Assembly (NCBI GenBank): GCA_042219475.1
Contig: JBDGPX010000007.1
Location: 30,433 to 94,432, forward strand
Length of the DNA stretch: 64,000 bases
From: Halobacteriales archaeon
GTDB lineage: Archaea > Halobacteriota > Halobacteria > Halobacteriales > Hikarchaeaceae
Direction: 5' to 3'
Positions within the stretch are counted from its first letter, which is position 1; every line of letters begins with the position of its first letter. A program made the translations under genes and the position numbers. Positions 9,672 through 51,377 of the stretch are shown here, one piece after another. The notes under the pieces were generated by a model. The model was not told the origin of the DNA and ran no database searches. It worked only from the letters and a program-made list of their open reading frames with translations.

Positions 9672-9822
9672 GTGGCTTTTCGGCCCGCTGCCCGCTTGTC
9701 ATGGTTCGTTTCCCGCTTTCATTAAGGGGAAGTAACGTCGGTTAACGCGCGTGTATCCCATCTCGGTGGGTGATCGCTGGACGTGAATTTATGTGTCCGA
9801 TCGCTGTGGGTATATAGCATCC

Positions 9823-11907
9823 ATGCGAGCGGAGCACGCTCATCTCGGCATCGATATCGGTGGAACGTTCACCGATATCACGTTCGTCGATCGTGCCACC
9901 GAAGAGATCGACGTCGGGATCGAAAAACACCCGACGAGTGCCAATCCGGCCGAGACGGTCAAAGACGCCATCGATCGGTTGGCTGATACAAACCGGTTCG
10001 ATATCACCGACTGTCGGATCTTCACTCACGCGACGACAGTCGCCGGAAATACGTTACTTGAACGGGCAGGCAGTCAGGTCGGGTTACTCACGACGGCGGG
10101 ATTCCGGGACATCATTGAAATGCGGGATGAAAGCCGCTATGACCTCTATGATGCCCATATTTCGTTCCCGGAGCCGATCCCGGAACGGCGGTTCCGGACC
10201 GGCGTTACCGAGCGGGTAACCGAAGATGGTACGGTCATGGAGCCGATCGATCCGGACGAACTCAAACGGGCGGTTCGGACGCTACGCCAGCGTGGGGCCG
10301 AAACGATCGCGGTCAGTTTTCTCCACTCCTACGTGAACGACGCGAACGAACAACGTGCCAACGCCATCATCCAGGAGGCCTTTCCGGAATTGTCCGTGAG
10401 TCTTTCCGCCGAGACCGCGCCCCGGCTTGGCGAATATCCCCGAACGACTACCACGACGATCAACGCCTACCTCAAGCCGATCGTTCAGGACTATCTCACC
10501 GAACTGGAGGCCTTTTTGACCGAGGAGGGATTTACGGGTGCGTTCCTGATCATGACGTCCGGCGGTGGCGTCGTCCCGGCAGCGTCCGCCCGGGAGCTTC
10601 CCGTTAGGTTGCTCGAATCCGGCCCGACGGCCGGCGCGCTTGTCGCTCAATATCTCGGGCAACGGTATGAAACACCTGACGTGATCGCCTTCGATATGGG
10701 CGGCACGACATCGAAAGGTTGTATTATCGAGGATTATGCCGTCGACAAAGCGTTCGAATTCGAAGCCGCACGGGAACACGAATTCAAAGCCGGCAGCGGC
10801 TATCCCGTGTTGATTCCAAACGTCAACCTCATCGAATTCAGTTCCGGAGGCGGTAGCATCGCCGATATCGATGACTTCGGATCGCTCACGATCGGTCCCG
10901 AAAGCGCCGGTGCGGTCCCCGGACCGGCCTGTTATGACCGGGGTGGCACGCGGGCGACCATCACCGATGCCGATGCCGTGCTGGGATATCTGCGCGAGGA
11001 TACCTTTGGGGACGGTCCCATCGATCTGAACCGGCAGCGGGCCAAGGATGTGATCCGTTCGGAGATCGCTGCACCCCTCGGTATTGATACCATCGATGCG
11101 GCTGCTGGCATCGTCCGCACCGCGAATGAGCGCATCTCGAATGCGTTCAAAGAACACGCCGCCGAACGCGGCATCGATATCCGGCGCAGTCGGCTGCTCG
11201 CCTTCGGCGGGGCCGGACCGATGCACGCCGGCGCGATCGCGAAATCTCTGAACATCGACACCGTCATTGTTCCACCTAACGCCGGTGTCCTCTCGAGTTT
11301 CGGGTTGCTGGTGACGCCGAAGTCGGTGTCGGTGAGCGAGGAAGTTCGCAACGCCGTGGATGACGTCCGTATCGACGATATCGAGACGGTGATCCAGACG
11401 TTGACTGACGAGGCGGCATCGGTCTTGGATGTCGACGCTGCCGACCGTACCGCCATCACGAAACGTCTCACGTTCGACATGCGGTTCGATGGCCAGGGAT
11501 TCGATGAGGAAATCAGCTTCCCGGCGGAGACGCCATTGACGATTCCCAACCTCCTGGAGGCGTTCGAGATCCACTACGAGGACACCTACGGCGTGTTGCC
11601 CGAGAAGGATATCCGGCTGTCTCGGATCAAACTGGAACTGACGCTGTCTGACGAGCCGGACGCTATCGAATTAACGACGGACGGCCCCGCTAATTCCCAA
11701 ATGGATCCGGTGCTGGCGGAACGCGAGGCGTATTTCCCGGCCACGGCCTCGTTCCATCGGACGCGATTTCTGGCGCGGGAGCGGTTGAGCATCGATCAAC
11801 AGCTCACCACGCCGTGTATCATCGAAGGCAACGGATCGACAACCGTGATCGGGCCCGATTCCGACGCCCGTATCGATGAACATCGCAATATCGTCGTGGG
11901 GTGCTAA
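9823..11907 (+). CDS. hyuA: hydantoinase/oxoprolinase family protein, A subunit
   Basis: N-terminal LGIDIGGTFTD motif. AATTTAT TATA-like box about 34 nt upstream of ATG 9823. The ORF track starts at GTG 9793. Confidence 0.85.
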   Translation: MRAEHAHLGIDIGGTFTDITFVDRATEEIDVGIEKHPTSANPAETVKDAIDRLADTNRFDITDCRIFTHATTVAGNTLLERAGSQVGLLTTAGFRDIIEMRDESRYDLYDAHISFPEPIPERRFRTGVTERVTEDGTVMEPIDPDELKRAVRTLRQRGAETIAVSFLHSYVNDANEQRANAIIQEAFPELSVSLSAETAPRLGEYPRTTTTTINAYLKPIVQDYLTELEAFLTEEGFTGAFLIMTSGGGVVPAASARELPVRLLESGPTAGALVAQYLGQRYETPDVIAFDMGGTTSKGCIIEDYAVDKAFEFEAAREHEFKAGSGYPVLIPNVNLIEFSSGGGSIADIDDFGSLTIGPESAGAVPGPACYDRGGTRATITDADAVLGYLREDTFGDGPIDLNRQRAKDVIRSEIAAPLGIDTIDAAAGIVRTANERISNAFKEHAAERGIDIRRSRLLAFGGAGPMHAGAIAKSLNIDTVIVPPNAGVLSSFGLLVTPKSVSVSEEVRNAVDDVRIDDIETVIQTLTDEAASVLDVDAADRTAITKRLTFDMRFDGQGFDEEISFPAETPLTIPNLLEAFEIHYEDTYGVLPEKDIRLSRIKLELTLSDEPDAIELTTDGPANSQMDPVLAEREAYFPATASFHRTRFLARERLSIDQQLTTPCIIEGNGSTTVIGPDSDARIDEHRNIVVGC

Positions 11908-11911
11908 TCCG

Positions 11912-13552
11912 ATGAGCGACATCGACGACATTTCACTCGGTGTGTACCGGGACAAATTGGTGTCGATCTGTGACCAGATGACGAACACGCTGGCCAGAAC
12001 GAGTTTCTCCCCGATCCTCCGAGAGGCCTTTGATCTGAGCGTCGGCATTACGGACAGGGACGGCCGACTCGTTGCCGAGGCGACCAATAGCCTGCCGAAT
12101 TTCACCCGGTTTCTCTCCCAGGCCTCGAAGAATATGATCGACGAGTTCGGCTATGATGGCATCGACGACGGGGATGTCCTGGTGAGCAATGACCCGTGGA
12201 GCGAAACAACCCACCAGTACGATATCGCCATCATCCACCCCGTCTTCTACGACGATGAATTCGTCGGCTTCACGACCGGGATGGGCCATCTATCGGATAT
12301 CGGTGGCAAGCCGTATTCGGCCGAGGCGAAATCGACGTTCGAAGAGGGACTGATCATCCCGCCGATGAAACTGATTCGTGGTGGCGAGCTGAACGATGAC
12401 ATCGTCGATATCATCCGAGCGAACGTGCGGGTCCCCAACGAAGTCATCGGCGACATCAAGTCGTTTCTGGCAGCGACCCATACCGGTCACGAGGAGATCA
12501 TCCGATTCATCGACCAGTACGATATTGACTTCCAGGCGGTGAGTGACGGCATCATCCGGCAATCAACCGCCAACATGCAACACGCGATCGGTGACCTCCC
12601 GGATGGCCGATACGAGGAATCTATTACTGTCGACGGCGTGAATCGAGATATCCGGATCGCGTGTGCGATCACGATCGAGGGTGATCGGCTGGCTGTGGAT
12701 TATGCAGGAACGGATGAGGAGGTCGACACGGCGATCAACGTCCCGAAACTGTACACCGACGCGTACACCCAGTACGCGATCAAATGCGTGACAACGCCCC
12801 AGACACACGAAACCGACGGCGATTTCCAGCCGGTGACGATCGACGCGCCGACGGGTTCGATCCTCAATCCGACGTATCCGGCCGCTATCGCGGGTCGGGC
12901 CTTGATCGGCCATCACTGTGCGGTCATCACAAACCGGGTGTTGTCCCAGATCGCCCCCGACATGACGATGGCCGACCCTGGTATGACGATGACGAGCCAG
13001 ATCAACTTCGAAACCGCTGACGGCGAGCAGCAGTCCGAAATGATGTTCAGTGCCGGCGGAAGCGGGGCCACCGCCCGCAAGGACGGTGCACCGACGCTGT
13101 CACTCCCGACTAATACCGCCTCGATCTCGATCGAGGATCTTGAGTCAAAGACCGGCCGCCTGCTGTTTCTCAGAAAAGCGCTCAGACAGGATTCCGGTGG
13201 TCCCGGCGAAACCCGTGGTGGATTAGGCCAAGAAATCGCGGTCCGGAACCGGTCGGATACGACCATCGACATCAACTTCCTCGGGAGAAAGGGCGCGTTC
13301 CCGGCCAAGGGGATTCAGGGTGGCCACGATGGGACGTGTCAGTCCGTTTATATCGATGATAAACAGGTCCCCGTCAAATCCGATCAACAACTAAAACCGA
13401 ACGAAGTCGTCAGCTATTACGAGGCTGGCGGCGGCGGATTTGGCGATCCAACTGATCGTTCGCCCGAACGGATTCGGAACGATCTCGGTAACGGCTATAT
13501 TTCCGAACAACACGCCCGTGAGGCCTATGATTTCGATCCCGATTCGATGTAG
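11912..13552 (+). CDS. hyuB: hydantoinase B/oxoprolinase family protein, B subunit
   Basis: 546 aa from ATG 11912, 4 nt after the hyuA stop. Hydantoinase_B-like sequence throughout. Confidence 0.85.
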   Translation: MSDIDDISLGVYRDKLVSICDQMTNTLARTSFSPILREAFDLSVGITDRDGRLVAEATNSLPNFTRFLSQASKNMIDEFGYDGIDDGDVLVSNDPWSETTHQYDIAIIHPVFYDDEFVGFTTGMGHLSDIGGKPYSAEAKSTFEEGLIIPPMKLIRGGELNDDIVDIIRANVRVPNEVIGDIKSFLAATHTGHEEIIRFIDQYDIDFQAVSDGIIRQSTANMQHAIGDLPDGRYEESITVDGVNRDIRIACAITIEGDRLAVDYAGTDEEVDTAINVPKLYTDAYTQYAIKCVTTPQTHETDGDFQPVTIDAPTGSILNPTYPAAIAGRALIGHHCAVITNRVLSQIAPDMTMADPGMTMTSQINFETADGEQQSEMMFSAGGSGATARKDGAPTLSLPTNTASISIEDLESKTGRLLFLRKALRQDSGGPGETRGGLGQEIAVRNRSDTTIDINFLGRKGAFPAKGIQGGHDGTCQSVYIDDKQVPVKSDQQLKPNEVVSYYEAGGGGFGDPTDRSPERIRNDLGNGYISEQHAREAYDFDPDSM

Positions 13553-17695: not shown

Positions 17696-18871
17696 ATGGA
17701 CCGGGCGATCGTCGCCGAGAAGACCGAGCAGGCGAGCCGTACTCTCGCGGACCTCGATCTCGATTGCTGGCCGACGTTTTGTCGTGAATCGGACGCCATC
17801 GGTGAACCCTCACTCCCCTTCGTCCTCGGATACGACGTCGTCTGGCCGGCCGCCATCCTGGTGACTGACGTGGGTCGAGCGATCGCGATCCTTGGCGAGA
17901 ACGATGCGGCCCCAGCACGCGAGCTCGACGTGCATGATGTCTACGCTTATCGGGAGTCGCTTGAACCGACACTCATCGAGCAGGTAGCGGCGATCGATCC
18001 CGACTCGATCGCGATCAATTACGCCGAGGACTTCCGCACCGCCGACGGGCTGACCCACGGAATGTACCGTCGATTTCTCGGGCATCTCGGTGGAACCCCC
18101 TATGCGGATCGGCTCGTGAGTGCATCGGATGTGATCCGGCGGGTCCGTGGCCGGAAATCGCCGACCGAGCGCGATCGAATCTATCGGGCCGCCGAAACGA
18201 CCGAGGAACTGTTCGCCGAATTCGCCGAAGCGTGGCACCCTGACTGGACTGACTCAGTCCGCCGACTGGCTTCACGAACGGGTGGCTGATCGCGGTCTCG
18301 ACCTCGCGTGGAGTCCGGATTACTGCCCCGCTGTCGACGCGGGCGGTGCCGCCACGGCCGGCCACACGGTGCCCGGCGATCGAACGCTCCCGCCAGGCGA
18401 GGTCTTGCACTTCGACTTCGGCGTCCGGTACGACGGGTATACTGCCGATCTGCAGCGGTGTTACTACCGTCCCAGCGTGGACGCTCCCGATCCTCCGGAC
18501 GTGTTACAGACAGCGCTTCAGAACGTCCGGGCGGCGATCGAGACGGTCGAACCCGGTCGAACCGGCCGGTCAATCGACGCGGCCGCCCGCGAGACGCTAA
18601 CTGATCGGGGCTGGCCAGAGCCCAATCACGGTATCGGCCACGAGGTCGGCCGTGAGGCTCACGACGGCGGAACGCTCTTCGGACCGCCCTGGGAACCCTA
18701 CGGCGCGTCCGTCGAGGCATCGGTGCATGTGGTGGCATCTACGCCGTCGAGCTCGGCGTCGACACCGAGTATGGATACATCGGTTTCGAGGATATGATCG
18801 GAGTAACTGACAGCGGGGTCGAGTACGTCGTCGAGCCCCAACGATCGCTCCGAATCCTTGAGAATCCTTGA
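17696..18871 (+). pseudogene. M24 family Xaa-Pro peptidase gene disrupted by two frameshifts
   Basis: The reading frame goes 2 -> 3 -> 2. The first shift is at a GACT-GACT 4-nt tandem duplication (18247-18254), the second at about 18732-18737. The joined translation is a continuous M24 protein with canonical motifs (FDFGVRYDGYTADLQR, HGIGHEVG, AVELGV, IGFEDMIGV). Confidence 0.8.
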
Positions 18872-18889
18872 TGACCCTGATCGATCGAT

Positions 18890-19726
18890 TCAGCCGCTGA
18901 GAACCGCTCGGAGGCCAAAGAGGAGATTTTCCTTGCGTTCGAGCAGCCGGCGATAGAAGTATGCGGCCCACTTGTCGCCGTAGGGGACGTACTGCCAGAC
19001 CGGATACTCCGTGGCCAGATCGTACTGGGCGTCTTCCCGAACGCCCATGAGCATCTGGATCTCGAAGTCGGTCCCGTGTTCGGCATAGAGTTCTTCGGCT
19101 CGCTCGATCATCGCCGGATCATGGCTCCCGACTGCGATCCCGCCGTCGTACGCCTCGAAGACGTATTCGAGGAGGCTTTCGTACTCTTCGTCGACCCTGG
19201 ATTTCTCGGTGTAGGCGATCTCCTTGGGTGGATCGTAGGCGCCTTTCACTAACCGGATTTTCCCATCGACGTCCTGCAGCCGCTCGAGGTCTTCACGGCT
19301 CCGTCTCATGTTCGCCTGAATACAGACACCGACGCCATTAGGGTAGTGGGCAGCGGCGTCCTCGAAGGCGTCAAGGGTCGCGTCGATGGTCGTGTGGTCC
19401 TCCATGTCGATCCAGACGAACTGTCCGTTGGCGTTCGCCCGCTCGACGATCCGTTCGAGGTTGTCCACGAACACTGACTCGTCGACATCGAGTCCGATCT
19501 GGGACGGTTTCACCGAGATGCAGGCGTCGATGTCCGCGGTATCGATATCGTCGAGCAATCGGCAGTATGTCTCGGTGTCGGCATCGGCTGGTTCACGGTT
19601 CGAGTAGTGCTCACCCAAGAGATTCAGAATCGCACCGACGTCGTGTTCGTTGAGCTGTCGGGCGTGGTCGATCGCCGTTGCTTCGGTTTCTCCGGCGACG
19701 AACTGGGAGGCGATTGGTGGGATCAT
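18890..19726 (-). CDS. proline dehydrogenase family protein
   Basis: 278 aa. N-terminus MIPPIASQFVAGETEATAIDHARQLNEHDVGAILNLLGEHY is typical of monofunctional archaeal/bacterial ProDH. Confidence 0.8.
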   Translation of the reverse strand: MIPPIASQFVAGETEATAIDHARQLNEHDVGAILNLLGEHYSNREPADADTETYCRLLDDIDTADIDACISVKPSQIGLDVDESVFVDNLERIVERANANGQFVWIDMEDHTTIDATLDAFEDAAAHYPNGVGVCIQANMRRSREDLERLQDVDGKIRLVKGAYDPPKEIAYTEKSRVDEEYESLLEYVFEAYDGGIAVGSHDPAMIERAEELYAEHGTDFEIQMLMGVREDAQYDLATEYPVWQYVPYGDKWAAYFYRRLLERKENLLFGLRAVLSG

Positions 19727-19891
19727 GGTTATGGATGTTCTATGGATGATAGTGACGTCGGGCGCATCGTGGGTGCCGGGGGTGGAGCGTCCTCACAGCC
19801 CCGACATCCGATCATATTGATATCTGAGGTGAACCACCGGAATGAATGTGCGGGAATCGATGTGATGTCGGCGAGATCGATGATGACTTGA

Positions 19892-20776
19892 TTAGCCGGT
19901 GTATCCCAATGCTTCGGCCGCCCCGAAGTACCGCTCGACGATGATGATCGCGACTAGGACGATCACGATGTTGACCGTCGAGACGGCGGCGATCACCGGA
20001 CTGGCGCCGAAGGTCATCTGCGCGAAGATCCGTACCGGGATCGGGATCACCCCCGGCCCTTGGAGGAAGATCGCGATCTGAAGGTTCGCGTAGCTCACGA
20101 TAAACGAGAAGATGGCCGCCGTGAGCACGCCGGGGAGCAACGCCGGGAAGGTCACATACCGGAACGTCTGGATCTCATCGGCACCGAGATTCATCGCGGC
20201 TTCCTCGATGGAGCGATCGAAGTTGTACATCGTCGTGAGGATACTCCGCGTCGCGTATGGCGTCGCGTACACCGCGAGTGCGAGCGACAGCCCAAGCAGA
20301 TTGCCGACGAGTCCGAAGTTCTTCAGGAACAACAGCAACGCGAGCCCGAGGATGACCTGGGGGATCATCAGTGGCAGGAACGTCCCCGCATCAAGGAGAT
20401 CCCGACCGGCGAAATCGAACCGGCCGATGGCATAGGCTGCCGCCGAGGAGAGGGCGATCGCGATGACGGTCGCCAACAGTGAATACTGGAAGCTGACCAC
20501 GAACGATGAGATCCAGGTCGTTCGCGAGAGGATCTCGGCATACCATTTCAGCGTGATCGATTCCGGCGGGAACGCATAGAGGTCGGATGGGTTGAAGCTG
20601 ATGAGCACCGCGAAGACGACCGGCAACAACAGAAAGACGAACATGCTCACCAGGGTGACGATCCACAGCGCCTGGGCAAGCGAGACGCCACCCAGGGAGT
20701 GATCGAGATTGATCTTTCCGAGTACCCCGGCCAGCCGGAACGGTTTCGACCGACCGATGTCCGATTCGTTGCTCAT
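19892..20776 (-). CDS. ABC transporter permease (PotC-like)
   Basis: 294 aa, multi-TM. 4-nt overlap with the upstream permease gene. Confidence 0.85.
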   Translation of the reverse strand: MSNESDIGRSKPFRLAGVLGKINLDHSLGGVSLAQALWIVTLVSMFVFLLLPVVFAVLISFNPSDLYAFPPESITLKWYAEILSRTTWISSFVVSFQYSLLATVIAIALSSAAAYAIGRFDFAGRDLLDAGTFLPLMIPQVILGLALLLFLKNFGLVGNLLGLSLALAVYATPYATRSILTTMYNFDRSIEEAAMNLGADEIQTFRYVTFPALLPGVLTAAIFSFIVSYANLQIAIFLQGPGVIPIPVRIFAQMTFGASPVIAAVSTVNIVIVLVAIIIVERYFGAAEALGYTG

Positions 20777-21729
20777 AGCATCCCCCCGCTTTCGGTGTAT
20801 TGGAGGTTGACGACTTTCCGATAGATGTAGACGAAGACGATCGAGACGAACAACAGCACGAACGACATCGCGGCCCCGAGCGGCCAGTTCAGGTCAGTCG
20901 TCGCGACACTGTAAATGAACGGCGCGATCATGCCGACCTCCGGCATGCCGATGAACACCGCCGTGGCGAAGGTCCCCATCGTGAGGACAAAGGCGATCAG
21001 CGTCGCGCCGACGACGCCGGGCAACGACAGTGGGAAGGTCACATACATAAACGTCTGCAGGCGATTCCCGCCGAGATTGTACGCGGCCTCGATGATCTCC
21101 TCATCGATCGTATAGAGGACGCTCATCAGGATGAGCACCGCAAAGGGCATCAGGACCGACGAGATCGCGATCACGAGCCCGGGTTTGGTGTTGAGCAACG
21201 TATAGCGCATTCCGAACACCCCGAGGATCTGGTTGATGACGCCGCTGCTCCCCATCAGCGCAAACCAGCCGAACGCACGGACCACGTTCCCCACGAGGAG
21301 GGGCGCAATCACCAGCAGAATGAGCGCTTTCGCGTAGGCCCAGTTCGAGAAGACGATGAAGTACGCCACCGGATAGCTGACGACGATCGTAAACAGCGTC
21401 GAGATGAGGCTGATCTCCACGGTGGTATAGAGCGTATTCATATAGAGGCTTGAGTTGAAGAACCGGATGTAGTTCTCCACCGTCAGCACCGGCTCCATCG
21501 TCGCCGTGGGGACGTTCGTAAAGAAGCTCACCAAGAGCATATATGCGATCGGGATCGCGAAGAAGATCGCCATGTAAAGCAGATACGGCCCCGCCAACAG
21601 ATACGCCGCATAGGGGCGGTCCTTGTGCTTTTGGATAAACACGCGCAGTCGTTCGTGGATGCGGGCGCCGATTGATCCGGTGGGACCGCCAACCGGCTCG
21701 GCAGCCGCTCCGGCGGTCTCGTCGCTCAC
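20773..21729 (-). CDS. ABC transporter permease (PotB-like)
   Basis: 318 aa, multi-TM. 4-nt overlap with the ATPase gene. Confidence 0.85.
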   Translation of the reverse strand: MSDETAGAAAEPVGGPTGSIGARIHERLRVFIQKHKDRPYAAYLLAGPYLLYMAIFFAIPIAYMLLVSFFTNVPTATMEPVLTVENYIRFFNSSLYMNTLYTTVEISLISTLFTIVVSYPVAYFIVFSNWAYAKALILLVIAPLLVGNVVRAFGWFALMGSSGVINQILGVFGMRYTLLNTKPGLVIAISSVLMPFAVLILMSVLYTIDEEIIEAAYNLGGNRLQTFMYVTFPLSLPGVVGATLIAFVLTMGTFATAVFIGMPEVGMIAPFIYSVATTDLNWPLGAAMSFVLLFVSIVFVYIYRKVVNLQYTESGGML

Positions 21730-22841
21730 GCTCGACCACCCGGGATCGCGAACGGGGTATCGGGGCTGAAGCTCAATGTTATCTCGTCGCCCTGTGTGAA
21801 GCCCATCTCCCGTTCGATGTTCTGTTGGACGGCTTGCAGTTCCTGACCGGCGGCAGTAACGAAGTAGTCGACCCGTGAACCGAGATAGGTTGCCTCCCGG
21901 ATCTCGCCCATCATCGTATTTGCCGCGTCGCCATCGTAATCCGGGCCATGGATCGAGAACCGTTCGGGTCGGAACAACAGCGTCACCGCCCGTCCGGTCG
22001 AGAGATCGATGCGGTCAGCTGTCGACTTGTCCAATGTAAAGTGCGGGCCGTCAGGGATTTCCACCGTATACGTTCCATCGCTGATGGCAGTGATTTCGCC
22101 GGTCAAGAGGTTGGCGTTGCCGATAAAATCGGCGACGAACTCGTCGTTTGGCTCCTGATAGACTTCCTCCGGCGTCCCGACCTGGTGGATCTTTCCCTCG
22201 GACATGACCGCCATCCGATCCGAGATCGTCAGCGCCTCTTCCTGGTTGTGTGTCACATAGACCATCGTGACGTCCAGTTCACGGTGTAGACGGAGGATCT
22301 CCAAGCGCATCTCCTCGCGGAGTTTCTTGTCAAGATCCGACAGTGGTTCGTCGAGCAGCATGACCGACGGTTCGATAACCAGCGCCCGTGCGAGCGCGAC
22401 GCGCTGTTGTTGGCCACCCGAAAGCTCCGATGGGTATCGATCGCCGAGTCCCTCGAGACGGACCATCGCGAGGGCATCCTCGACCCGTTCATCGATCTCG
22501 GCGTCAGGCAGGCCTTCCATTTCGAGACCGAAGGCGATATTGTCCGCTACCGTCATGTGGGGAAACAGCGCATAATGCTGGAAGACCATCCCCGTATCAC
22601 GACTATAGGCGGGCGTGTTCGTAACCGACTGCTGGTTGATCAAAACGCTGCCGTCAGTGGGTTTCTCGAACCCAGCGATCATCCGTAACGTCGTCGTCTT
22701 GCCACAGCCTGACGGCCCAAGCAGGGTCAACAATTCGCCCTCGCGGATTTCGAGGTCGATGTCGTCGACTGCGGTGACGTCGCGGAATTGTTTCGTCAGG
22801 TCCTGCAGTTCGACGACTGAGGACGGCTGAGCAGCACACAT
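21726..22841 (-). CDS. ABC transporter ATP-binding protein (PotA-like, with C-terminal regulatory/OB domain)
   Basis: Walker A GPSGCGKTT, signature LSGGQQQRVALARAL, Walker B MLLDEPLS. Confidence 0.9.
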   Translation of the reverse strand: MCAAQPSSVVELQDLTKQFRDVTAVDDIDLEIREGELLTLLGPSGCGKTTTLRMIAGFEKPTDGSVLINQQSVTNTPAYSRDTGMVFQHYALFPHMTVADNIAFGLEMEGLPDAEIDERVEDALAMVRLEGLGDRYPSELSGGQQQRVALARALVIEPSVMLLDEPLSDLDKKLREEMRLEILRLHRELDVTMVYVTHNQEEALTISDRMAVMSEGKIHQVGTPEEVYQEPNDEFVADFIGNANLLTGEITAISDGTYTVEIPDGPHFTLDKSTADRIDLSTGRAVTLLFRPERFSIHGPDYDGDAANTMMGEIREATYLGSRVDYFVTAAGQELQAVQQNIEREMGFTQGDEITLSFSPDTPFAIPGGRA

Positions 22842-22923
22842 GGGAGTTAGGTCTGTAAGTGTTGGTGTAGGGAGTTAATCGTAACGTGATCGTTCTCTCC
22901 AAGCGTAATGGTGGGCCGATCGA

Positions 22924-24012
22924 TCAGCTGTATTTATTGATGATCGTGTTTGCCCGCTCACGCCAGTCGGCCCGCCGCTCGGCGATCCAGTCGAAGTCCG
23001 GTACGTTCAGGTTTTCGAGGTCCTCCGACTGGACGAGTTTGTCCTCGATATCAGATGGGTATTCCGCCGACGGGTTCGGGTTGGTGTAGAACATGTTCTT
23101 CGCGATCACCTTGGCGGCATTGTTCTGCAGCGTCCGGTCGATGAATTTCCCGGCCCACTCGATTTTGTTCTCCGGGATGTTCTTCGGGATCGCGTTGCCG
23201 AAGTTCGTCGTCATCGCACCCTCTTTTGGAATCGTACTCGTCACCGGCTTTCCTTCTGAATTCCACTGGGCGGCCCGGGCCGACCAGTAGCGCCCACCGA
23301 TGACCTCCTCTTGGGCGAAGAGCTTGCCGTATTCCTCACTGGAGGTGACATAGACGGGATTCATCGTCTTGACGACCTCCTCGTACATCGAGAACGCCTT
23401 GTCGACGGCCTTGAACGATTCGCCACCAGTCTGGGCCAACGAGAACGCAAGCACGTCGTGGGTGGGATCCTCCGAGAAGAGACCGACCTTTCCTTTATAA
23501 TCGGTATTGAGATAGATATCTTTCCAGGATTCCGGCTCGGAACTCACCTGATTGGGGTTGTACAACAGGGCGCTGGCGGCGAAAATCTGCAACACCCAGT
23601 CCTCGCCCTTGAAGTTGTCCGGGATATCCGGGTACGTCGGGACGATGTCACCATCGAGATCGAGCCAGAGATCGGAACTCGCCCCGCGTACCAATCCGGC
23701 GCCGTCCTGCTGGGAGACATCAACCGGCGGGTTGTTCTTCTGCGCGATGATCTTGTTGAGTCGTTCGGTGTTGTCACCGAGGACGTACTCGACACTGATG
23801 TCGGTCTCCTCTTCATAGGGCTCGACGACCGCCTTGATCATCAGATCCTGCCAGGTCCCACCCCACGTACCGAGAGTGAGGCTGCTAGGTTTCCCGCCCC
23901 CGCCACCACCGATCCCGCCGGCACAGCCGGCCAGACCGAGCGTCGCCGCGGCACTCCCGAACGCACCGGCACGTTTCAAATACTCTCTCCGAAGCATGCG
24001 TTGCCGTGACAT
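22924..24012 (-). CDS. ABC transporter substrate-binding lipoprotein (PotD/PotF-like) with Tat signal
   Basis: From ATG 24012: MSRQRMLRREYLKRAGAFGSAAATLGLAGCAG, which gives a twin-arginine motif plus a lipobox Cys. Periplasmic-binding-protein-like remainder. Confidence 0.85.
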   Translation of the reverse strand: MSRQRMLRREYLKRAGAFGSAAATLGLAGCAGGIGGGGGGKPSSLTLGTWGGTWQDLMIKAVVEPYEEETDISVEYVLGDNTERLNKIIAQKNNPPVDVSQQDGAGLVRGASSDLWLDLDGDIVPTYPDIPDNFKGEDWVLQIFAASALLYNPNQVSSEPESWKDIYLNTDYKGKVGLFSEDPTHDVLAFSLAQTGGESFKAVDKAFSMYEEVVKTMNPVYVTSSEEYGKLFAQEEVIGGRYWSARAAQWNSEGKPVTSTIPKEGAMTTNFGNAIPKNIPENKIEWAGKFIDRTLQNNAAKVIAKNMFYTNPNPSAEYPSDIEDKLVQSEDLENLNVPDFDWIAERRADWRERANTIINKYS

Positions 24013-24238
24013 GATGCAAATATTGCTTATTGTTATAGCATACTTAATGATACTGTATCTCGAACCGGATGCGGCCATCGCTGGGGAGTCTAATCAGCGA
24101 TATCGTTGGTTACGGCCTCTCATCCGACTTCGTACTCCATTCAGGTGTAGGTCGCGGATGGCATCGATCGGTGTCGTGGATCGGACCGTCGACGATCAAT
24201 CCATGATTTAAGGGCTGTGCTGACGAGATACTGGCGTG

Positions 24239-25429
24239 ATGGAACCCGACAAACTCAGGATTCCGCCATCGGAGCACCGCGAACGAATGGATGCCGTCCT
24301 CGAAGCGGCACAGGACGATGGGTACGATGGTGTCGTCCTCTTTGGCGCCCTGGATATCCACTACGTCAGCGGTATGTATCACCTTCCGACCGAACGCCCC
24401 GTCGTGCTCGGCGTCACGGATGCGGGATCCCAAATCGTCGTGCCCCGGCTCGAACAGGAACACGCCGAACGGGATGATTTCATCATCGACGATGTCCACG
24501 TCTATTTCGATTATCCCCAGGGTGAACCGATGGAACGGGTCGCCGAGATGTGTGCCGAGCTCGGCCTCGATTCCGGACGTGTCGCCGCCGACGCCGATGG
24601 GAGCCCATCCCGGAACGGCTACGAGGGGCCGGCGTTGTCGGAGGTCATCGACGCCGACGTCGGTGTCGAGGACTACATCACCGACATGCGGGAGGTCAAA
24701 AGCGACACCGAAATCGATCTCATTCGCGAAGCGAGTGTTTGGTCGAATCTCGGTCACCGGATGCTTCAAGAGAAGATCGATGTCGGACGGTATCCGGCCG
24801 TGATCAGCGCGGAGGTCGAAGCCGAAGGCACCAAGGCCATGCTCGACACCCTCGGCGATCGGTACGAGATGATGGATTGGTCGAGCCCGATGATGTGCAA
24901 ATTCACGGCCGGGGAGATCACCGCACTCCCCCACAGCGTCGACCAGACGACCCGCATCGAGCCGGGGGACAACATCGTCACGGTCGTCAAGCCGCATGTG
25001 GGCGGGTACACGACCGAGCTCGAACGAACGATGATCGTTGGCGAACCAAGCGCCGAACAACGGGATTATTTCGAGATCATGCAGGAATCCCAGGAGATCG
25101 CGATCGACGCCATCGCGCCCGGTGTCGAGTACGCCTACGTCGAGGAAGCGGTCGTCGACTACTACGAGGAACAGGGCGTCAACAACTACACCCAACACCA
25201 CATCGGTCACAACATCGGTATGGAGGGCCACGAGCGGCCCTTCCTCGACATCGGGTACGATGGTGAACTCCGGCAGGGGGAACTCTACACTGTTGAACCG
25301 GGATTTTACGTCCCGGAGATCGGCGGATTCCGTCACTCCGATACGGTGTTGGTAACCGGCGATGGCACCGAGACGCTGACGTATTACCCGCGTGATCTCG
25401 AGAGCCTGACCATCGATATCGATGCGTGA
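24239..25429 (+). CDS. atypical M24-fold hydrolase (creatinase/prolidase-like), paralog a
   Basis: 396 aa. Retains HHIGHNIGMEGHERP and TVEPG. The canonical ligand positions read V, E and S (GDNIVTVVKPHVGGYTTELERT; GGFRHSD). TTTAAG box about 30 nt upstream of the ATG. Confidence 0.8.
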   Translation: MEPDKLRIPPSEHRERMDAVLEAAQDDGYDGVVLFGALDIHYVSGMYHLPTERPVVLGVTDAGSQIVVPRLEQEHAERDDFIIDDVHVYFDYPQGEPMERVAEMCAELGLDSGRVAADADGSPSRNGYEGPALSEVIDADVGVEDYITDMREVKSDTEIDLIREASVWSNLGHRMLQEKIDVGRYPAVISAEVEAEGTKAMLDTLGDRYEMMDWSSPMMCKFTAGEITALPHSVDQTTRIEPGDNIVTVVKPHVGGYTTELERTMIVGEPSAEQRDYFEIMQESQEIAIDAIAPGVEYAYVEEAVVDYYEEQGVNNYTQHHIGHNIGMEGHERPFLDIGYDGELRQGELYTVEPGFYVPEIGGFRHSDTVLVTGDGTETLTYYPRDLESLTIDIDA

Positions 25430-26582
25430 ACTCGCCCCCTCTCCGGCCGATCGGTTCGTCGATCCCGACCGCTTCGATCGAATCCGAACGGCCCTGACGG
25501 AGAGCAATCTCGATGGGTTGGTCGGCCTCTCGCCGGCGAACTCGTATTACCTCACCGGCGTCTACGCCGGGATGTACTCCCGACCGGTCGTCGGCGTCGT
25601 CACCGATCGGACGAGCGCGTTCGGCGGTCCCCGACTCGAAGCCCGCAAGGCCGAACGGACCGGATGGGTCGATCGGGCAGTCGTCTACGAGGACGCTGAC
25701 GATCCGTTCGACGTATTGGCCAGTATTATCCCCGACAATGTCGACCGGATCGGGTACGATCAGGCCTACGCCCGTCCCGGCTGGATCGACGAACTCGACG
25801 CTCGACTCGATGTCGCGTTCGTCGATGCGACCGATACCTTCCTCGACTGTCGGATGATCAAAACCGAGTGGGAACTCGAGATGATGCGTCGGACCGCCGA
25901 CCTGGCGGGGGCGGGCATCGAGGCCTACACCGATGCTGTGGCTGCTGGCCGACCGGAACTCGACGTGGTGGATGCCATTCAGGATGCGTTTTATGAGACT
26001 TACCTCGACCAGCATCCGGAATACGACATCGGCACGGCCAACGAACTGGGCCAATACGGCTTCGCGAGCGTGCTGTCGGGCGGTCACGCCCTCGAACCCC
26101 ACAGCATTTCCTCGGCCAAACCGATCGAGGACGGCGAGACCGTCGTCGGCATTGCGCTTCCATCACTGCAGGGCTACGTCTGTGAGGAGGAACGGACCGT
26201 GTTGGTCGGCGATGTTGACGCCGATATCGTCGAAGCGATGGAGACGCTCGTCCGGGTGCGCCGGGAGACAATGGATCTCCTCGAGGCCGGACGGGGGACC
26301 GACGAGATCGATGACTGGACCGCGACCGAGCTTCGAGACGCCGGCTACGGCGAGCATATCATCCACCGTACTGGCCATGGCGAGGGGATCACGATCCACG
26401 AGGGTCCGGCGTTGAACGCCCGGGAATCCGGCCAGCTCGAACCCGGCATGGTGATCAGTGTCGAACCGGGGCTGTACTTCCCCGACCGTGACGTTGCCCT
26501 GCGACATTCGGATACGTTCATCATCACCGACACCGGGGCCGAACGGCTCACACACACCGACGACGGCGTCCGTCGCGCCTGA
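25422..26582 (+). CDS. atypical M24-fold hydrolase (creatinase/prolidase-like), paralog b
   Basis: 386 aa. The start overlaps the paralog-a stop by 8 nt (ATGCGTGA). Same substitution pattern (GETVVGIALPSLQGYVCEEERT; ALRHSD), with HRTGHGEG and SVEPG retained. Confidence 0.8.
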   Translation: MRELAPSPADRFVDPDRFDRIRTALTESNLDGLVGLSPANSYYLTGVYAGMYSRPVVGVVTDRTSAFGGPRLEARKAERTGWVDRAVVYEDADDPFDVLASIIPDNVDRIGYDQAYARPGWIDELDARLDVAFVDATDTFLDCRMIKTEWELEMMRRTADLAGAGIEAYTDAVAAGRPELDVVDAIQDAFYETYLDQHPEYDIGTANELGQYGFASVLSGGHALEPHSISSAKPIEDGETVVGIALPSLQGYVCEEERTVLVGDVDADIVEAMETLVRVRRETMDLLEAGRGTDEIDDWTATELRDAGYGEHIIHRTGHGEGITIHEGPALNARESGQLEPGMVISVEPGLYFPDRDVALRHSDTFIITDTGAERLTHTDDGVRRA

Positions 26583-26587
26583 CACCC

Positions 26588-27772
26588 ATGGCCACGTTCG
26601 ATCTCCTCTTACACGGCGATTGCTGGGATGCCGATCGGGGTCGACGATCGGATCGCTGGCTGGCGATCGACGACGGCGTTATCGCCGGCTGTTTTCGCGA
26701 GAAACCCGGTGACGCTGCCCTCGAACGGTCGGTTTCGCTCATCACTCCCGGGCTGATCGACATGCACGTCCATCTCGTCTGGGATGGCAGTGCGGATCCG
26801 GTCGCGACGCTCCGGTCGGAATCCGAACAGGCCCTGCTGATCCGCGCGTTGGAGAACGGCCGTACCCAACTTCGTCACGGCGTCACGACGGTCCGTGATG
26901 TCGGCAGTGTCGCCGATATCGCTATTACTGTTGCGACGGCGATCCGACGGGACCGACTGTTCGGGCCGCGGACGTTCGCCAGCGGCCGAACCGTGATCAT
27001 CACCGCCGGTCACGATCCGTTCTGGGGGATCATGAGCGACGGTCCCGATGCCTGCCGGCAGGCGGTGCGGGAGCTACGGGGCGCTGGCGCCGACCTGATC
27101 AAGGTCTCGGCGACCGGCGGCGTCTACGGTCAGGCCATCGGCGAGGAGCCCGGGGCGACCGAATTAACGCGGGCCGAACTCGAAGCGGTCGTCGACGAGG
27201 CGGCCCGGTTTGATCTCCCCGTTGCGGCCCATGCTGTCGGCCAGGACGGAATCGAGAACGCGGTCGCCGTCGGCGTGGATACGATCGAACACGGCAACCT
27301 CATGGCCGACAGGACGCTCGACCGGCTGATCGACGCCGATATCGCCTATGACCCAACGCTATACGTCTATCGGGAGATCGCTCACTCCGATACGGCGCCG
27401 GCCTACGCCCGGGCGAACGCCCAAGCGGTATTCGAACGACATTGGGAAGTCGCCCGGCGCGCGATCGCCGAAGACGCCCGGATTATCGCCGGGAGCGATG
27501 CGGGCTCCCCGGGTACCCCGCATCCAAGTCTCCACCGCGAACTGACCTGTTTAGTCGAGGCTGGTATGGACGAGACGGCCGCGTTGACAGCGGCGACACA
27601 GACGCCGGCGGCCGAACTCGGCCGTCCCAAACTGGGCACGCTTGAGACAGGAACGCCGGCGGATGTCCTCGGGTTCGATGACGATCCCCTCGTCGACATC
27701 GGTGTCACCGCCTCACCGACGGTCGTGGTCCGGGACGGCGACCCCGCGTTCTATCCTGATCTGCCGGTGTGA
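26588..27772 (+). CDS. amidohydrolase superfamily protein (imidazolonepropionase/prolidase-like branch)
   Basis: 394 aa. PGLIDMHVHLVWDG metal motif, KVSATGGV, AAHAVG, IEHG, AGSDAG. Starts 5 nt after the M24b stop. Confidence 0.8.
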   Translation: MATFDLLLHGDCWDADRGRRSDRWLAIDDGVIAGCFREKPGDAALERSVSLITPGLIDMHVHLVWDGSADPVATLRSESEQALLIRALENGRTQLRHGVTTVRDVGSVADIAITVATAIRRDRLFGPRTFASGRTVIITAGHDPFWGIMSDGPDACRQAVRELRGAGADLIKVSATGGVYGQAIGEEPGATELTRAELEAVVDEAARFDLPVAAHAVGQDGIENAVAVGVDTIEHGNLMADRTLDRLIDADIAYDPTLYVYREIAHSDTAPAYARANAQAVFERHWEVARRAIAEDARIIAGSDAGSPGTPHPSLHRELTCLVEAGMDETAALTAATQTPAAELGRPKLGTLETGTPADVLGFDDDPLVDIGVTASPTVVVRDGDPAFYPDLPV

Positions 27773-27817
27773 CTGGACCGCACTCGACGGATCGGGCGAA
27801 ACGGCAGTCACGGCCGA

Positions 27818-28930
27818 TCAGAGGATCCGGAGCTCCCGGGGGAATCCCGTGAGCACCTCGGCCCCCTCCTCCGTAAGAACGACGTCGTCCTCGATCCGTA
27901 CGCCGCCGAACTCCTCGACATAGACGCCCGGTTCGACGGTAAACGCGTTGCCGATCACCAGGGGTGTCTCGTTCCCCTCGACCAGATACGGTGGTTCGTG
28001 ACCTTCGAGTCCGAGACCATGGCCGAGTCGGTGGGTGAAGTACTCCCCGTAGCCGGCCTCTTCGATGACCTCGCGAGCGGCACGATCAAGCGCCTGGAGT
28101 TCGACGCCTTCTTCGACAGCTTCCCGTCCTGCTCGGGCGCCCTCCCGGACGACCTCGTAGATCTCGCGGAATTCCTCGTCAGGCTCGCCGACGTTGAACG
28201 TGCGGGTGATGTCGGAATAATACCCCTTACAGACGACGCCTGCGTCGATCATCAGCGGATCCCCATCCTCGATCTCACGCTCGCCGGTGTTGGTGTGTGG
28301 TTTCGCCGTGTTCGGCCCACTCGTCACGATGAGTACACCCAATTCATCGGCCCGACTGTCGATCGCTCGCTTCTCGATATCGCGGGCGACATCACGCTCG
28401 GTCATCCCCGGTTCGACGGTTTCGATAGTCGCCGCCAGGATGTCGTCAATGATCGATGCGGCCTCCCGCATGTGCTCGATCTCCTGATCGTCCTTGCGGG
28501 CCCGCAATGAAGCGATCGCGTCCTCGGCATCGACGATTTCTCCCCACTCGAAGGCGTCGGCGATCAGTTCGTACTCAAGCAGGCGGGTCGAGCGGTATTC
28601 CATACCGACCCGACCGGTGATGGTACGGTCTACCTGGAGTTCCTCGAACGCGTCGCGGGCAGCTTCAAGTGGATCAGTCGCGTCCGTATAGATGAAAAAT
28701 TCGGTAGCCTCTCCGAGGGCATCCCGCACTCGGCTCGTCTCGAGGGCCGGTAACACGACTGCCGGTGGCTGGTCTCGCTGTAAGACCAGCACGGTCGGCC
28801 GTTCACTCTGATGCATCTCCAGTCCGGTGAAGTACCGCATCGTCCGGCTCGGCGGAATCATCACCGCCTCGATCGCACTATCGAGTGTTTCGAACAGCCG
28901 TTCGCGTCGGTCTGCATGGATCTCGGCCAT
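27818..28930 (-). CDS. pepQ: Xaa-Pro dipeptidase/aminopeptidase (canonical M24B, PepQ-like)
   Basis: All five canonical ligand motifs are present: GDPLMIDAGVVCKGYYSDITRT, HRLGHGLGLEGHEPP, FTVEPGVY, GGVRIEDDV. ATG 28930 preferred over the upstream start at 28975. Confidence 0.85.
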   Translation of the reverse strand: MAEIHADRRERLFETLDSAIEAVMIPPSRTMRYFTGLEMHQSERPTVLVLQRDQPPAVVLPALETSRVRDALGEATEFFIYTDATDPLEAARDAFEELQVDRTITGRVGMEYRSTRLLEYELIADAFEWGEIVDAEDAIASLRARKDDQEIEHMREAASIIDDILAATIETVEPGMTERDVARDIEKRAIDSRADELGVLIVTSGPNTAKPHTNTGEREIEDGDPLMIDAGVVCKGYYSDITRTFNVGEPDEEFREIYEVVREGARAGREAVEEGVELQALDRAAREVIEEAGYGEYFTHRLGHGLGLEGHEPPYLVEGNETPLVIGNAFTVEPGVYVEEFGGVRIEDDVVLTEEGAEVLTGFPRELRIL

Positions 28931-37720: not shown

Positions 37721-37780
37721 TCGACCCTGCCTCAAGGAGCGAGCGCGTTAGCACGAGCGAGTAGGCAGGGGTAGTTCACT
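37691..37780. repeat. composite palindrome (repeat copy C) spanning the 3' ends of convergent trmO and thrC; likely bidirectional terminator
   Basis: Outer IR AGTGAACT (37691-37698) / AGTTCACT (37773-37780). Inner perfect stem CCCTGCCT (37725-37732) / AGGCAGGG (37763-37770). The loop matches module B2 (AGCGAGCGCGT.AG..CGAGC). Confidence 0.6.
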
Positions 37781-38891
37781 CGCTTTTGAGGCCGCTCCCG
37801 GTGAGCGGGACGACGACGTCGGCGTCGGTCGCGAGGATATCCCGATCCCGATACACCTCGAGCGCCGCCGGTGCGGCAGCACACGTCGGTTCCGTGTAAT
37901 ACCCGTTACTGTGGAGTCGATCGAGAGCGTCCTCGACGGCCGGTTCGCTGACTGCGATCGCATCACCGTCAGTCGTCTCGATCGCCGCGATGATCTGCTC
38001 CTGTCGGGCGGGTTCGCGAATCTGGATCCCGTCGGCGACATCGTTCGTACCCGCCGCCGCCTTTTCCCCGTGGAGGGCGGCGACGATCGGCGCGTAGCCC
38101 GCCGCTTGAGCACCGAGCATTCGGGGGAGTCGGTCGATCCAGCCCGCCTCTTTGAGCGCACGGAACCCACGGTAGGCACCCAAAAAGAGCGTCCCGTGAC
38201 CGAGCGGGCTGACGACGGCCTCCGGCGGTTCCCACTCCCGTTGGGCACACACCTCCATGGCGAAGGTACTCGTCCCGGCGAAGAAGGCCGGATTCCAGGC
38301 GTGACTGGCGTACCAGGTACCGCCGGTTTCGACCCGATCGATACAGGCGTCGGTGACGTCCTCCCGGGATCCTTCGATCCGGATCGGCTCGGCACCCGTC
38401 CGCTCGATCGCTCGAAGCTTTGCCTGTTTGACCCCTGCGGGGACGTAAATCTCGGCTGGAATATCGGCGACCGCGGCATACTGGGCGATGGCCGCCCCGG
38501 CGTTGCCCGAGGAGTCATCAACGATCCGGTCGACGCCCAACTGGGCAGCGCGTGAGAGTAGTGCTGTCGCCCCACGGTCCTTGAAGCTCCCCGAGGGGAA
38601 CACCCATTCCAGTTTGAACTGCGCAGTCCAGTCATCGGCGGAGACCAGCGGCGTAAAGCCCTCGCCAAGGGTCACCCGCGGCGAGATTGGGAGGAAGTCC
38701 GCAAACGCCCAGAGCCCACCCCGTGTATCGAGCGCTGTCGGATCGGGTGCGGGTCCGTCCGGGATGGGTGTCTCGATGAAGTCAAGCGGCCCGCCACAGG
38801 TACACCGCCAAGGTTCGTCCGGTCCACTGTCGTACTCGGTGCCACAGACGCTACAGCGGAGGCCCGTCATACCGCTTCGTTGGCCGGGCAT
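37776..38891 (-). CDS. thrC: threonine synthase (PLP, with N-terminal zinc ribbon)
   Basis: 371 aa. CSVCG...CTCGG N-terminus and PLP-lysine motif PSGSFKDRGA. Confidence 0.75.
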   Translation of the reverse strand: MPGQRSGMTGLRCSVCGTEYDSGPDEPWRCTCGGPLDFIETPIPDGPAPDPTALDTRGGLWAFADFLPISPRVTLGEGFTPLVSADDWTAQFKLEWVFPSGSFKDRGATALLSRAAQLGVDRIVDDSSGNAGAAIAQYAAVADIPAEIYVPAGVKQAKLRAIERTGAEPIRIEGSREDVTDACIDRVETGGTWYASHAWNPAFFAGTSTFAMEVCAQREWEPPEAVVSPLGHGTLFLGAYRGFRALKEAGWIDRLPRMLGAQAAGYAPIVAALHGEKAAAGTNDVADGIQIREPARQEQIIAAIETTDGDAIAVSEPAVEDALDRLHSNGYYTEPTCAAAPAALEVYRDRDILATDADVVVPLTGSGLKSE

Positions 38892-38901
38892 CGGGGTAGC
38901 T

Positions 38902-38925
38902 GTGTCGGTGTCAGTGTCAGTGTCA
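38902..38925. repeat. tandem hexanucleotide repeat (GTGTCR x4)
   Basis: GTGTCG GTGTCA GTGTCA GTGTCA in the 47-nt spacer between the AstE-family gene stop and the thrC start. Confidence 0.8.
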
Positions 38926-38938
38926 GTATTTCCTCGCT

Positions 38939-39895: not shown

Positions 39896-40020
39896 TAATG
39901 CGAACCGACACATCCAGCGTATTGGGTCTATCGGGTTTCGTCTCCGTTTCCGCCACCACCGACGCTGCGTACAGGCGTTGGATCGATGCCACTTTGCCGG
40001 CACCACTCGTATCGAAACCC

Positions 40021-51128: not shown

Positions 51129-51377
51129 TCACGTCGGGACCTACCTACTACATCGCGACCTGTTGATTCGATGTCTCGATTTTTCCGTTGATATCCGTTC
51201 TGTATTCGGTGTCCGTGTGTTTGCCTGCGGCTATTGGCCCGTTCATCCGATACCGTGGCCGTGGTCGCTCTGTTCGGTATGGCGACGATCCGAACAACCG
51301 ATCTGAAACACAGAGATTCGGCGGTCCTGACGGGGGTTTTCGATTCTTCTAAGTGGATTGCCGCGGGAATTCGGTAC

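Follow-up and report, generated by a model that had tools for sequence, protein, structure and literature searches.

The subject of this report is a gene cluster at positions 17696–28930 of a 64-kb stretch of DNA from a Halobacteriales archaeon (contig JBDGPX010000007.1; the whole stretch is hereafter the window), in which genes for an ATP-binding cassette (ABC) importer with its solute-binding protein (SBP), a proline dehydrogenase (ProDH), an amidohydrolase and four proteins of the M24 fold lie together. The cluster is conserved among haloarchaea of several genera, and we consider, with moderate confidence, that it serves to import and hydrolyze a small amide that yields proline, which is then oxidized. 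Briefly, a Tat-exported lipoprotein SBP would capture the solute, most likely a di- or tripeptide of the Xaa-Pro type or an N-acyl or otherwise N-blocked proline, and the importer, which is of Pot architecture, would take it up. Three types of intact cytoplasmic hydrolase (M24a/M24b, the amidohydrolase and PepQ) would then cut the amide bonds, and ProDH would oxidize the freed proline to pyrroline-5-carboxylate (P5C), with the P5C dehydrogenase encoded elsewhere. An N-acyl-proline or a special Xaa-Pro compound is a plausible substrate; this chemical class, the order of the steps and proline as the product are what we infer from the loci.

The genes present, their arrangement in operons, the conservation of their linkage and the state of the active-site residues are observed directly. 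The window was analyzed by means of an open reading frame (ORF) map and Pfam scans of its proteins, and all window proteins were mapped onto loci fetched for comparison, namely at least 80 genome loci around relatives of M24a, 10 metagenome loci around relatives of M24b and several annotated contigs.

Conservation of the cluster across haloarchaea

The hydrolases are coupled to the ABC system in a set of 12 loci: the window, its counterpart in a sister metagenome-assembled genome (MAG; L087), and the loci that we term L002, L003, L005, L010, L014, L093, L095, L096, L099 and L102. M24b, the amidohydrolase and the canonical PepQ are each encoded in 11/12 and M24a in 10/12; M24a is missing from DL31 and L095, where the ABC system is accompanied by M24b, the amidohydrolase and PepQ. 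The set spans Haloprofundus, a Haladaptatus megaplasmid, Halolamina, Halopenitus, DL31, Halobellus and metagenome contigs, with unrelated flanks and three gene orders. In the window the flanking genes encode DUF502 and CarS; in Haloprofundus the cluster is flanked by genes for a metallo-beta-lactamase-fold protein and an FAA hydrolase; and a 572-kb plasmid of Haladaptatus pallidirubidus carries the eight genes, with a VapC toxin gene on one side and a tricarboxylate transporter gene on the other. A second order recurs in L010, L096, L099 and L102, where a PepQ–ProDH pair is divergent from M24a–M24b–amidohydrolase and the ABC operon and an IclR regulator gene come next. Since the linkage survives both rearrangement and relocation, it points to function rather than to shared ancestry alone. 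As a separate observation, an ISH3-family transposase gene (373 bits, above cut-off) occupies the expected place of M24b in Halopenitus persicus (L014, 6870–8039), between M24a and the ABC operon.

The transporter is itself exchangeable. An SSF symporter, whose best match is the Na+/proline symporter PutP (124–141 bits, below cut-off), adjoins or diverges from M24a in nine loci, from Natrialba, Natronococcus, Halobiforma, Halalkalicoccus and a second Haladaptatus plasmid; in several of these M24a is alone and an HTH_10 regulator gene accompanies it, ProDH being present in some and absent from others. In the fetched loci M24a always adjoins a transporter gene, and M24b is nearly always paired with a gene for a second amide hydrolase, an Amidohydro_1 gene lying directly 3' of it in 11 loci. 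A different pairing was seen on the metagenome contig LKMJ01000001.1 (L097, 8463–17939), where a signature Amidase gene is divergent from M24b and genes for a copper amine oxidase and an MFS transporter are found in the vicinity. The converse of DL31 and L095, M24a with no M24b, is seen in seven loci of Natrialbaceae and Haladaptatus; because each occurs alone, the two are not obligate partners, and we reject the possibility of an obligate M24a/M24b heteromer. A first-pass annotation of this DNA had read the locus as one uptake-plus-hydrolysis module and had suggested a comparison of gene neighborhoods. That comparison finds the ABC importer, M24b, the amidohydrolase and PepQ linked in the 12 loci despite unrelated flanks. 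Thus, the linked unit holds, but the idea of a single fixed module gives way before the exchange for SSF symporters and the solitary occurrences of M24a and M24b.

Layout of the locus

The ORF map and Pfam scans reproduced all ten genes of the first-pass annotation at the same coordinates and on the same strands, with Creatinase_N, Peptidase_M24, Amidohydro_1, SBP_bac_8 and Pro_dh all assigned by Pfam; the sister MAG, which has the same gene order, calls the same starts (SBP, 362 aa; PepQ, 370 aa). The minus strand carries, in order of transcription, the genes for the SBP (22924–24012), the ABC ATPase (21726–22841), a PotB-like permease (20773–21729), a PotC-like permease (19892–20776) and ProDH (18890–19726), the last lying 165 bp 3' of the PotC-like gene. 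The two permease genes share a 4-nt overlap (20773–20776), and another 4-nt overlap is found at the permease/ATPase junction. Divergent from these, across a spacer of 226 bp (24013–24238), the plus strand carries M24a (24239–25429), M24b (25422–26582) and the amidohydrolase gene (26588–27772), with an 8-nt overlap between the first two and a 5-nt gap between the second and third, such that every junction described earlier is upheld. PepQ (27818–28930, minus strand) converges on the amidohydrolase gene, and at the other end a fourth M24 gene, M24d (17696–18871, plus strand), converges on ProDH.

M24d was described earlier as decayed, and this is indeed the case. Peptidase_M24 is detected on its middle frame (86.6 bits), and comparison with an intact orthologue of 395 aa in the sister MAG (L087, 3360–4547) using tblastn, blastn and three-frame translation places changes of frame near 18260 and near 18730. 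Judged from the sequence, M24d of the window is a pseudogene inactivated by two frameshifts; the intact orthologue has the canonical metal ligands D,D,H,E,E.

Proline as the likely product

The ProDH of the window is a monofunctional enzyme of 278 aa with a full-length Pro_dh domain (Pfam, 103.7 bits; profile positions 2–272), which scores 200.7 bits against the NCBIfam model ProDh_Thermus, under the cut-off of 500. Across the M24a/M24b loci, a ProDH gene is found within 10 kb in 9/24, and in at least four arrangements: after PotC in the window and L087; paired with PepQ in the four loci of the second gene order; after an HTH_10 regulator in L007 and L011; and after DppF in L015. By our own estimate, a single-copy gene would fall within 10 kb by chance in ~0.6% of loci in a genome of ~3.5 Mb. 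Further, in Halopenitus (L014) a P5C dehydrogenase gene, whose product scores 472 bits to the glutamate-semialdehyde dehydrogenase subfamily, adjoins that of the amidohydrolase; no P5C dehydrogenase gene was found in the 64-kb window. Because linkage to ProDH and P5C dehydrogenase recurs, a canonical prolidase is a constant member and PepQ and ProDH form a gene pair, proline is likely to be the product, as had been supposed in the first-pass annotation.

Two observations on proline metabolism stand apart from the cluster itself. A gene of the ornithine cyclodeaminase/mu-crystallin family, potentially encoding a proline-forming enzyme, lies 22 kb away in the window (51234–52373). Likewise, Halocatena marina (L015/L085, 1689–21179) and Halococcus salifodinae (L036, 246–12485) possess a bigger proline/hydroxyproline-peptide cluster, with genes for IclR, a proline-racemase-family protein, DAO, an aminotransferase, a PutP-like SSF symporter, M24a, M24_x (see below), a Dpp/Opp ABC system, ProDH and another M24 protein; its proline-racemase-family gene best matches trans-3-hydroxy-L-proline dehydratase (398 bits vs. 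540).

The M24 proteins and their remodelled metal site

M24a, M24b and PepQ all combine Creatinase_N with the pita-bread Peptidase_M24 domain, above the Pfam gathering score (217 bits for PepQ). In this architecture they resemble the M24B prolidases PepQ of Pyrococcus furiosus and P. horikoshii (1PV9/1WY2), which are also their best sequence matches. Alignments that include the Pyrococcus enzymes show that the PepQ of the cluster has all five metal ligands (D,D,H,E,E), which vindicates its earlier description as canonical and, together with the PepQ–ProDH pair of four loci, brings the locus close to a prolidase–ProDH system. M24a (V,E,H,E,S) and M24b (I,E,H,E,S) differ: the first Asp is replaced by Val or Ile, the second Asp by Glu and the last Glu by Ser, such that two of the five ligands are lost. 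Their characterization in the first-pass annotation as an atypical pair is thereby borne out. In both, three ligand positions are still occupied by His, Glu and Glu, the Arg preceding the last ligand position is retained, and there are in addition an invariant Glu two residues past the second ligand position (ELERT in one, EEERT in the other) and an invariant RHSD motif. In canonical M24B enzymes the positions lost here build the second metal site, which contacts the free amine of the substrate; loss of that site would fit substrates without a free N-terminus.

A ligand table of the 133 M24 genes in the fetched loci recovered the altered site in every orthologue of M24a, M24b and M24_x, and in ~60 copies of a housekeeping paralogue (L017–L081, ~60 loci) that is single-copy, near-universal among the haloarchaea sampled and without conserved context. 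The shared pattern is G/V/I, ExE, H, E, HS in place of D, D, H, E, E. Hence, on the alignments, the altered metal site is a feature of the clade and not peculiar to this locus. M24_x forms a sister clade whose genes lie immediately next to Dpp/Opp peptide importers of five genes, in the company of genes for ProDH, DAO and a proline-racemase-family protein. Since both the housekeeping paralogue and the Dpp-adjacent M24_x carry the same altered site, an exotic non-peptide substrate becomes less likely. Relatives at 42–45% identity come from Alicyclobacillus, Acetothermia and a Heimdallarchaeota MAG; canonical prolidases, with no more than ~30% identity, are the closest entries in PDB, and no solved or characterized member of the clade is among the closest PDB matches. 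M24a, with >85 orthologue clusters at ≥59% identity, and M24b are 26% identical to each other. The M24b orthogroup is confined to haloarchaea and sharply bounded, with identity falling from 54% to 45/43% and then to 31%, where the relatives are bacterial genes in unrelated contexts that offer no functional lead.

With respect to family models, PepQ (194 bits), M24a (131) and M24b (124) are all far under the PepQ_Arch equivalog cut-off of 630 bits (NF040821), and neither M24a (43–44 bits) nor M24b (45–77) approaches the ectoine-hydrolase models TIGR02993 and NF038259 (613 and 575 bits, respectively). Searches against PDB gave E-values of 1e-35 for prolidases and only ~1e-13 to 1e-14 for creatinase; by sequence similarity, then, M24a and M24b favor prolidases over ectoine hydrolase or creatinase.

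The amidohydrolase

The amidohydrolase (Amidohydro_1, 132.8 bits) belongs to the amidohydrolase superfamily, and its best relatives are 2QS8 of Alteromonas, annotated as an Xaa-Pro dipeptidase, the Arg/Lys carboxypeptidase Cc2672, ochratoxin-degrading amidohydrolases and the Sgx9260 prolidases. Alignments to 9KOV and 2QS8 indicate that the binuclear-metal residues HxH, Lys, His, His and Asp are all conserved, the Lys being at the position that is carbamylated; it shares these with the superfamily prolidases and carboxypeptidases Sgx9260b/c (3MKV/3FEQ/3N2C), Cc2672 (3MTW), 2QS8 and ochratoxinase (4C5Y). As its relatives are Xaa-Pro, Xaa-Arg and N-acyl-amino-acid hydrolases, the protein is best placed, by homology, in the carboxypeptidase/N-acyl-amino-acid hydrolase group. 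Work of the Raushel laboratory reportedly established that enzymes of this group cleave the bond between a C-terminal L-amino acid and the acyl or aminoacyl group that it carries; specificity for that C-terminal residue is not readable from sequence. The best NCBIfam match is the Caulobacter-type Xaa-Pro dipeptidase model NF051886 at only 209 bits vs. the cut-off of 500, and the present gene further differs from the Cc2672/Sgx9260 group in being fixed directly 3' of an M24 gene.

The importer and its binding protein

The importer has the same four components as PotABCD. Its ATPase (ABC_tran with TOBE_2 at the C-terminus) passes the potA subfamily model TIGR01187 (366 bits, cut-off 355.6), with 395 bits against the PotA equivalog, below the 482 required. 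The permeases (BPD_transp_1) are nearest PotB (132 bits, cut-off 348) and PotC (124 bits, cut-off 326), both under the equivalog cut-offs. The SBP (SBP_bac_8) differs from PotD. It was recognized earlier as a Tat-signal lipoprotein, and its N-terminus, MSRQRMLRREYLKRAGAFGSAAATLGLAGC, does contain a twin-arginine motif and an LAGC lipobox; the pattern MLRREYLK...LGLAGC has its RR, G29 and C30 kept across orthologues. The family is small, with 47 relatives detected, all haloarchaeal or hypersaline. Against the PotD equivalog the SBP scores 39.8 bits (cut-off 582); of the PotD residues, W255, D257 and D168 have no conserved counterpart, W229 does, and E171 is replaced by Asp. The nearest neighbors of a structural model (pLDDT 79) are structural-genomics proteins without ligand, followed by Atu4243, which binds gamma-aminobutyric acid (GABA), AttC, AgtB (agropinic acid) and MotA (mannopine), with PotD homologues ranking only ~41st. 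The ligands bound by these neighbors are carboxylates derived from amino acids, opines among them. Taken together, the sequence and the model suggest that the ligand is probably a small amino-acid-derived solute and not a polyamine.

The first-pass annotation had called this SBP polyamine-type and had seen in it an argument for a non-standard substrate. The departure from polyamines is supported by the scores, the PotD residues and the structural ranking; the step to an exotic non-peptide substrate is weakened by the altered site that the Dpp-adjacent M24_x shares. Separately, on a metagenomic contig (L094, 223–7070; Logan ERR9830979) we observed a 46%-identical paralogue of the SBP that has PotABC-like genes of its own and lies next to genes for a creatininase-family protein and an Amidohydro_3 protein, apparently a different cluster for uptake of small amides.

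Weighing the alternative explanations

Several points weigh against a proline-yielding amide as the substrate of a dedicated module: (i) the ten genes form four separate transcription units, and the cluster has no regulator in this genome; (ii) ProDH is missing from 15/24 M24a/M24b loci; (iii) M24a and M24b are without two of the five canonical ligands, such that peptidase activity is not assured; (iv) by TM-score (TMq), the AlphaFold model of M24b (pLDDT 85) fits creatinases (0.83–0.85) and EutD (0.80) no less well than prolidases (0.71–0.77), and the fold thus leaves the chemistry undecided between prolidase, creatinase and EutD; (v) no enzyme of the cluster attains an NCBIfam equivalog cut-off, so that no specific activity can be transferred; (vi) peptide importers are normally of the Opp/Dpp type, we know of no ABC system of Pot architecture and no SSF symporter that carries peptides, and to our knowledge the SBPs of this architecture have no peptide-binding member.

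The main rival reading, which we hold to be rather unlikely, takes up several of these points. It has M24b, and M24a with it, as non-peptidase C–N hydrolases acting on a cyclic or N-blocked solute (e.g., a lactam, a cyclic amidine, a guanidino compound or a diketopiperazine), with the amidohydrolase then deacylating the product and PepQ and ProDH being only end-product handlers or bystanders. The precedent is EutD/EutE (DoeA/DoeB) with the Ehu/Ueh importer, where likewise an M24 hydrolase with a non-canonical site is encoded beside a second amide hydrolase, a deacetylase, and an importer (PMC8739950), and where the lineages differ in the type of transporter that accompanies the conserved core of catabolic genes (PMC8739950, PMC13188858). 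The two replaced ligands, the near-constant pairing of M24b with a second amide hydrolase (Amidohydro_1 in 11 loci, Amidase in L097), the TM-scores of the model, the SBP paralogue beside creatininase-family and Amidohydro_3 genes, the binding of a lactam, agropinic acid, by the structural neighbor AgtB, and the exchange of ABC and SSF transporters, which fits a small solute, can all be read in its favor.

The comparison with EutD/EutE is nonetheless imperfect. The partner there is of the AstE/AspA family and here an Amidohydro_1 protein; transaminase and dehydrogenase of 2,4-diaminobutyrate (DABA) catabolism accompany it there and ProDH here. The only AstE/AspA gene of the window, which lies next to a PALP enzyme gene (in the stretch 37776–40006), is 11 kb off, adjoins no M24 gene and scores 112 bits against DoeB (cut-off 402). 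With the ectoine-hydrolase scores (43–77 bits vs. 575–613) so far below threshold and the EutE-type partner and DABA-catabolic genes missing from the cluster, we reject ectoine catabolism. The putative haloarchaeal EutD clusters reported in 2026 encode BCCT transporters and aminotransferases (PMC13188858) and are for this reason to be seen as different loci. The creatinases (1CHM/1KP0/7YTO) share with M24b the two-domain M24 fold, a similar length and the top TM-scores, but M24a and M24b differ from them in having kept His, Glu and Glu, the sequence similarity is weak and no sarcosine or urea catabolic genes are found at the cluster; support for creatine catabolism is thus limited to the fold. 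Creatinase, too, is without the canonical dinuclear site. Ectoine and creatine, which the first-pass annotation had listed among the growth substrates to try, fall short of the family thresholds, though for creatinase the weak sequence matches stand beside the highest TM-scores of the M24b model; literature searches for residue-level data on creatinase and EutD returned nothing usable, as did those for the present gene combination. More generally, a non-peptidase role has against it the sequence similarity on the prolidase side, the three ligands that remain (His, Glu and Glu) together with the Arg that precedes the last ligand position, the same altered site in M24_x beside Dpp importers and in the near-universal housekeeping paralogue, and the recurrent linkage to PepQ, ProDH and P5C dehydrogenase.

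Less probable still is that there is no dedicated pathway at all, and that general cytoplasmic peptidases have come by chance to lie beside an unrelated importer and ProDH, all independently transcribed. The separate transcription units, the lack of a regulator, a spacer motif attributable to chance (see below), the solitary occurrences of M24a or M24b, the absence of ProDH from most loci and the housekeeping paralogue without conserved context might all be so understood. However, the same eight genes stay together across genera and on a megaplasmid, within unrelated flanks and after rearrangement; the SBP and M24b orthogroups are seen essentially only inside such clusters; and the frequency of nearby ProDH genes is well above our chance estimate. 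We therefore regard chance adjacency as poorly supported.

A further reading, for which we see only a slim chance, would make M24a/M24b, which lack the metal site that anchors a free N-terminal amine in canonical M24B enzymes, and the amidohydrolase a dedicated pathway for cyclic or N-blocked proline amides, e.g., proline 2,5-diketopiperazines such as cyclo(Xaa-Pro). One enzyme would open the ring, others would cut the linear Xaa-Pro or Pro-Xaa product and ProDH would use the proline. Being small and neutral, such compounds would also account for the exchange of a small-solute ABC system for an SSF symporter; the enzymes that break down diketopiperazines are still largely unidentified (PMC3852281). 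Finally, a true PotABCD-type polyamine importer, with hydrolases processing acetylated or gamma-glutamylated polyamines and an incidental link to proline, is poorly supported and very improbable: its ATPase and permease matches and the JGI annotation of the orthologues as a putative spermidine/putrescine system are outweighed by an SBP unlike PotD in score, residues and structural rank, the want of any cluster enzyme from a polyamine-catabolic family, the PutP-like symporter of M24a orthologues and the repeated linkage of ProDH, P5C dehydrogenase and PepQ.

The divergent spacer and the genomic setting

Within the spacer between the SBP gene and M24a, the TTTAAG box noted earlier is present at 24207–24212, ~29 nt 5' of the M24a ATG at 24239; such a distance between a TATA-like box and the start codon is usual for leaderless haloarchaeal transcripts. 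The two copies of the heptamer GATACTG (24049 and 24227), which had been taken for a shared operator, both exist, but their repetition is at chance level. The window holds 9 copies vs. 4.7 ± 2.0 expected, which is unremarkable, and some repeated 7-mer is present in 65% of shuffles of the spacer and in 265/283 real 226-bp tiles of the window. The heptamer was not found in the orthologous spacers of Halobellus, Haloprofundus and Haladaptatus (three genomes), and we reject it as an operator. An 8-nt perfect inverted pair, GTATCTCG (24055–24062) and CGAGATAC (24224–24231), overlaps both copies of the heptamer; inverted pairs of 8 nt occur in 33% of shuffles and in 180/283 real tiles, and so this pair is not significant. 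The spacer gave no Rfam match, i.e., no riboswitch or other RNA element.

The locus had also been called an island, and for a classical integrative island or mobile insertion we find no evidence in the window: the GC content of the cluster (0.58–0.65) resembles that of its flanks, the sole tRNA gene of the window is at 46857, and neither a flanking tRNA nor an integrase gene is present. The block is nonetheless found in differing genomic contexts and on a plasmid. A 211-aa TnpB/Cas12f-like ORF with OrfB_IS605 and TNB domains elsewhere in the window (57240–57875) is probably a truncated IS605-family element. Other amide-related genes lie outside the cluster. A truncated CocE/NonD or S15 X-Pro dipeptidyl-peptidase-like gene stands at the left edge of the window (42–1682), followed by an Amidohydro_3 gene (1734–3338). 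A hydantoinase A/B pair of the ATP-dependent lactamase/oxoprolinase type is 4 kb from the cluster (9793–13552), with caprolactamase alpha and beta as its best NCBIfam matches (427 and 200 bits, cut-off 1000).

Implications

Every component of the cluster comes from a known family and its overall logic is familiar; the locus is a variant of a nutrient-scavenging locus. The locus itself is uncharacterized and its remodelled M24 clade undescribed. The restriction of the cluster to haloarchaea and its conservation there, including in several cultivable species and strains such as Haloprofundus marisrubri SB9, Haladaptatus pallidirubidus, Halolamina salifodinae and DL31, make substrate screening and genetics feasible, and the chemistry of the remodelled clade, once learned, would correct blanket annotations as Xaa-Pro peptidases. 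If the substrate turns out to be ordinary Xaa-Pro peptides, this would be a routine peptide-scavenging locus with an unusual transporter. If instead it is a special proline amide, it would be a further nutrient source to reckon with when the flow of carbon and nitrogen through hypersaline brines is modelled.

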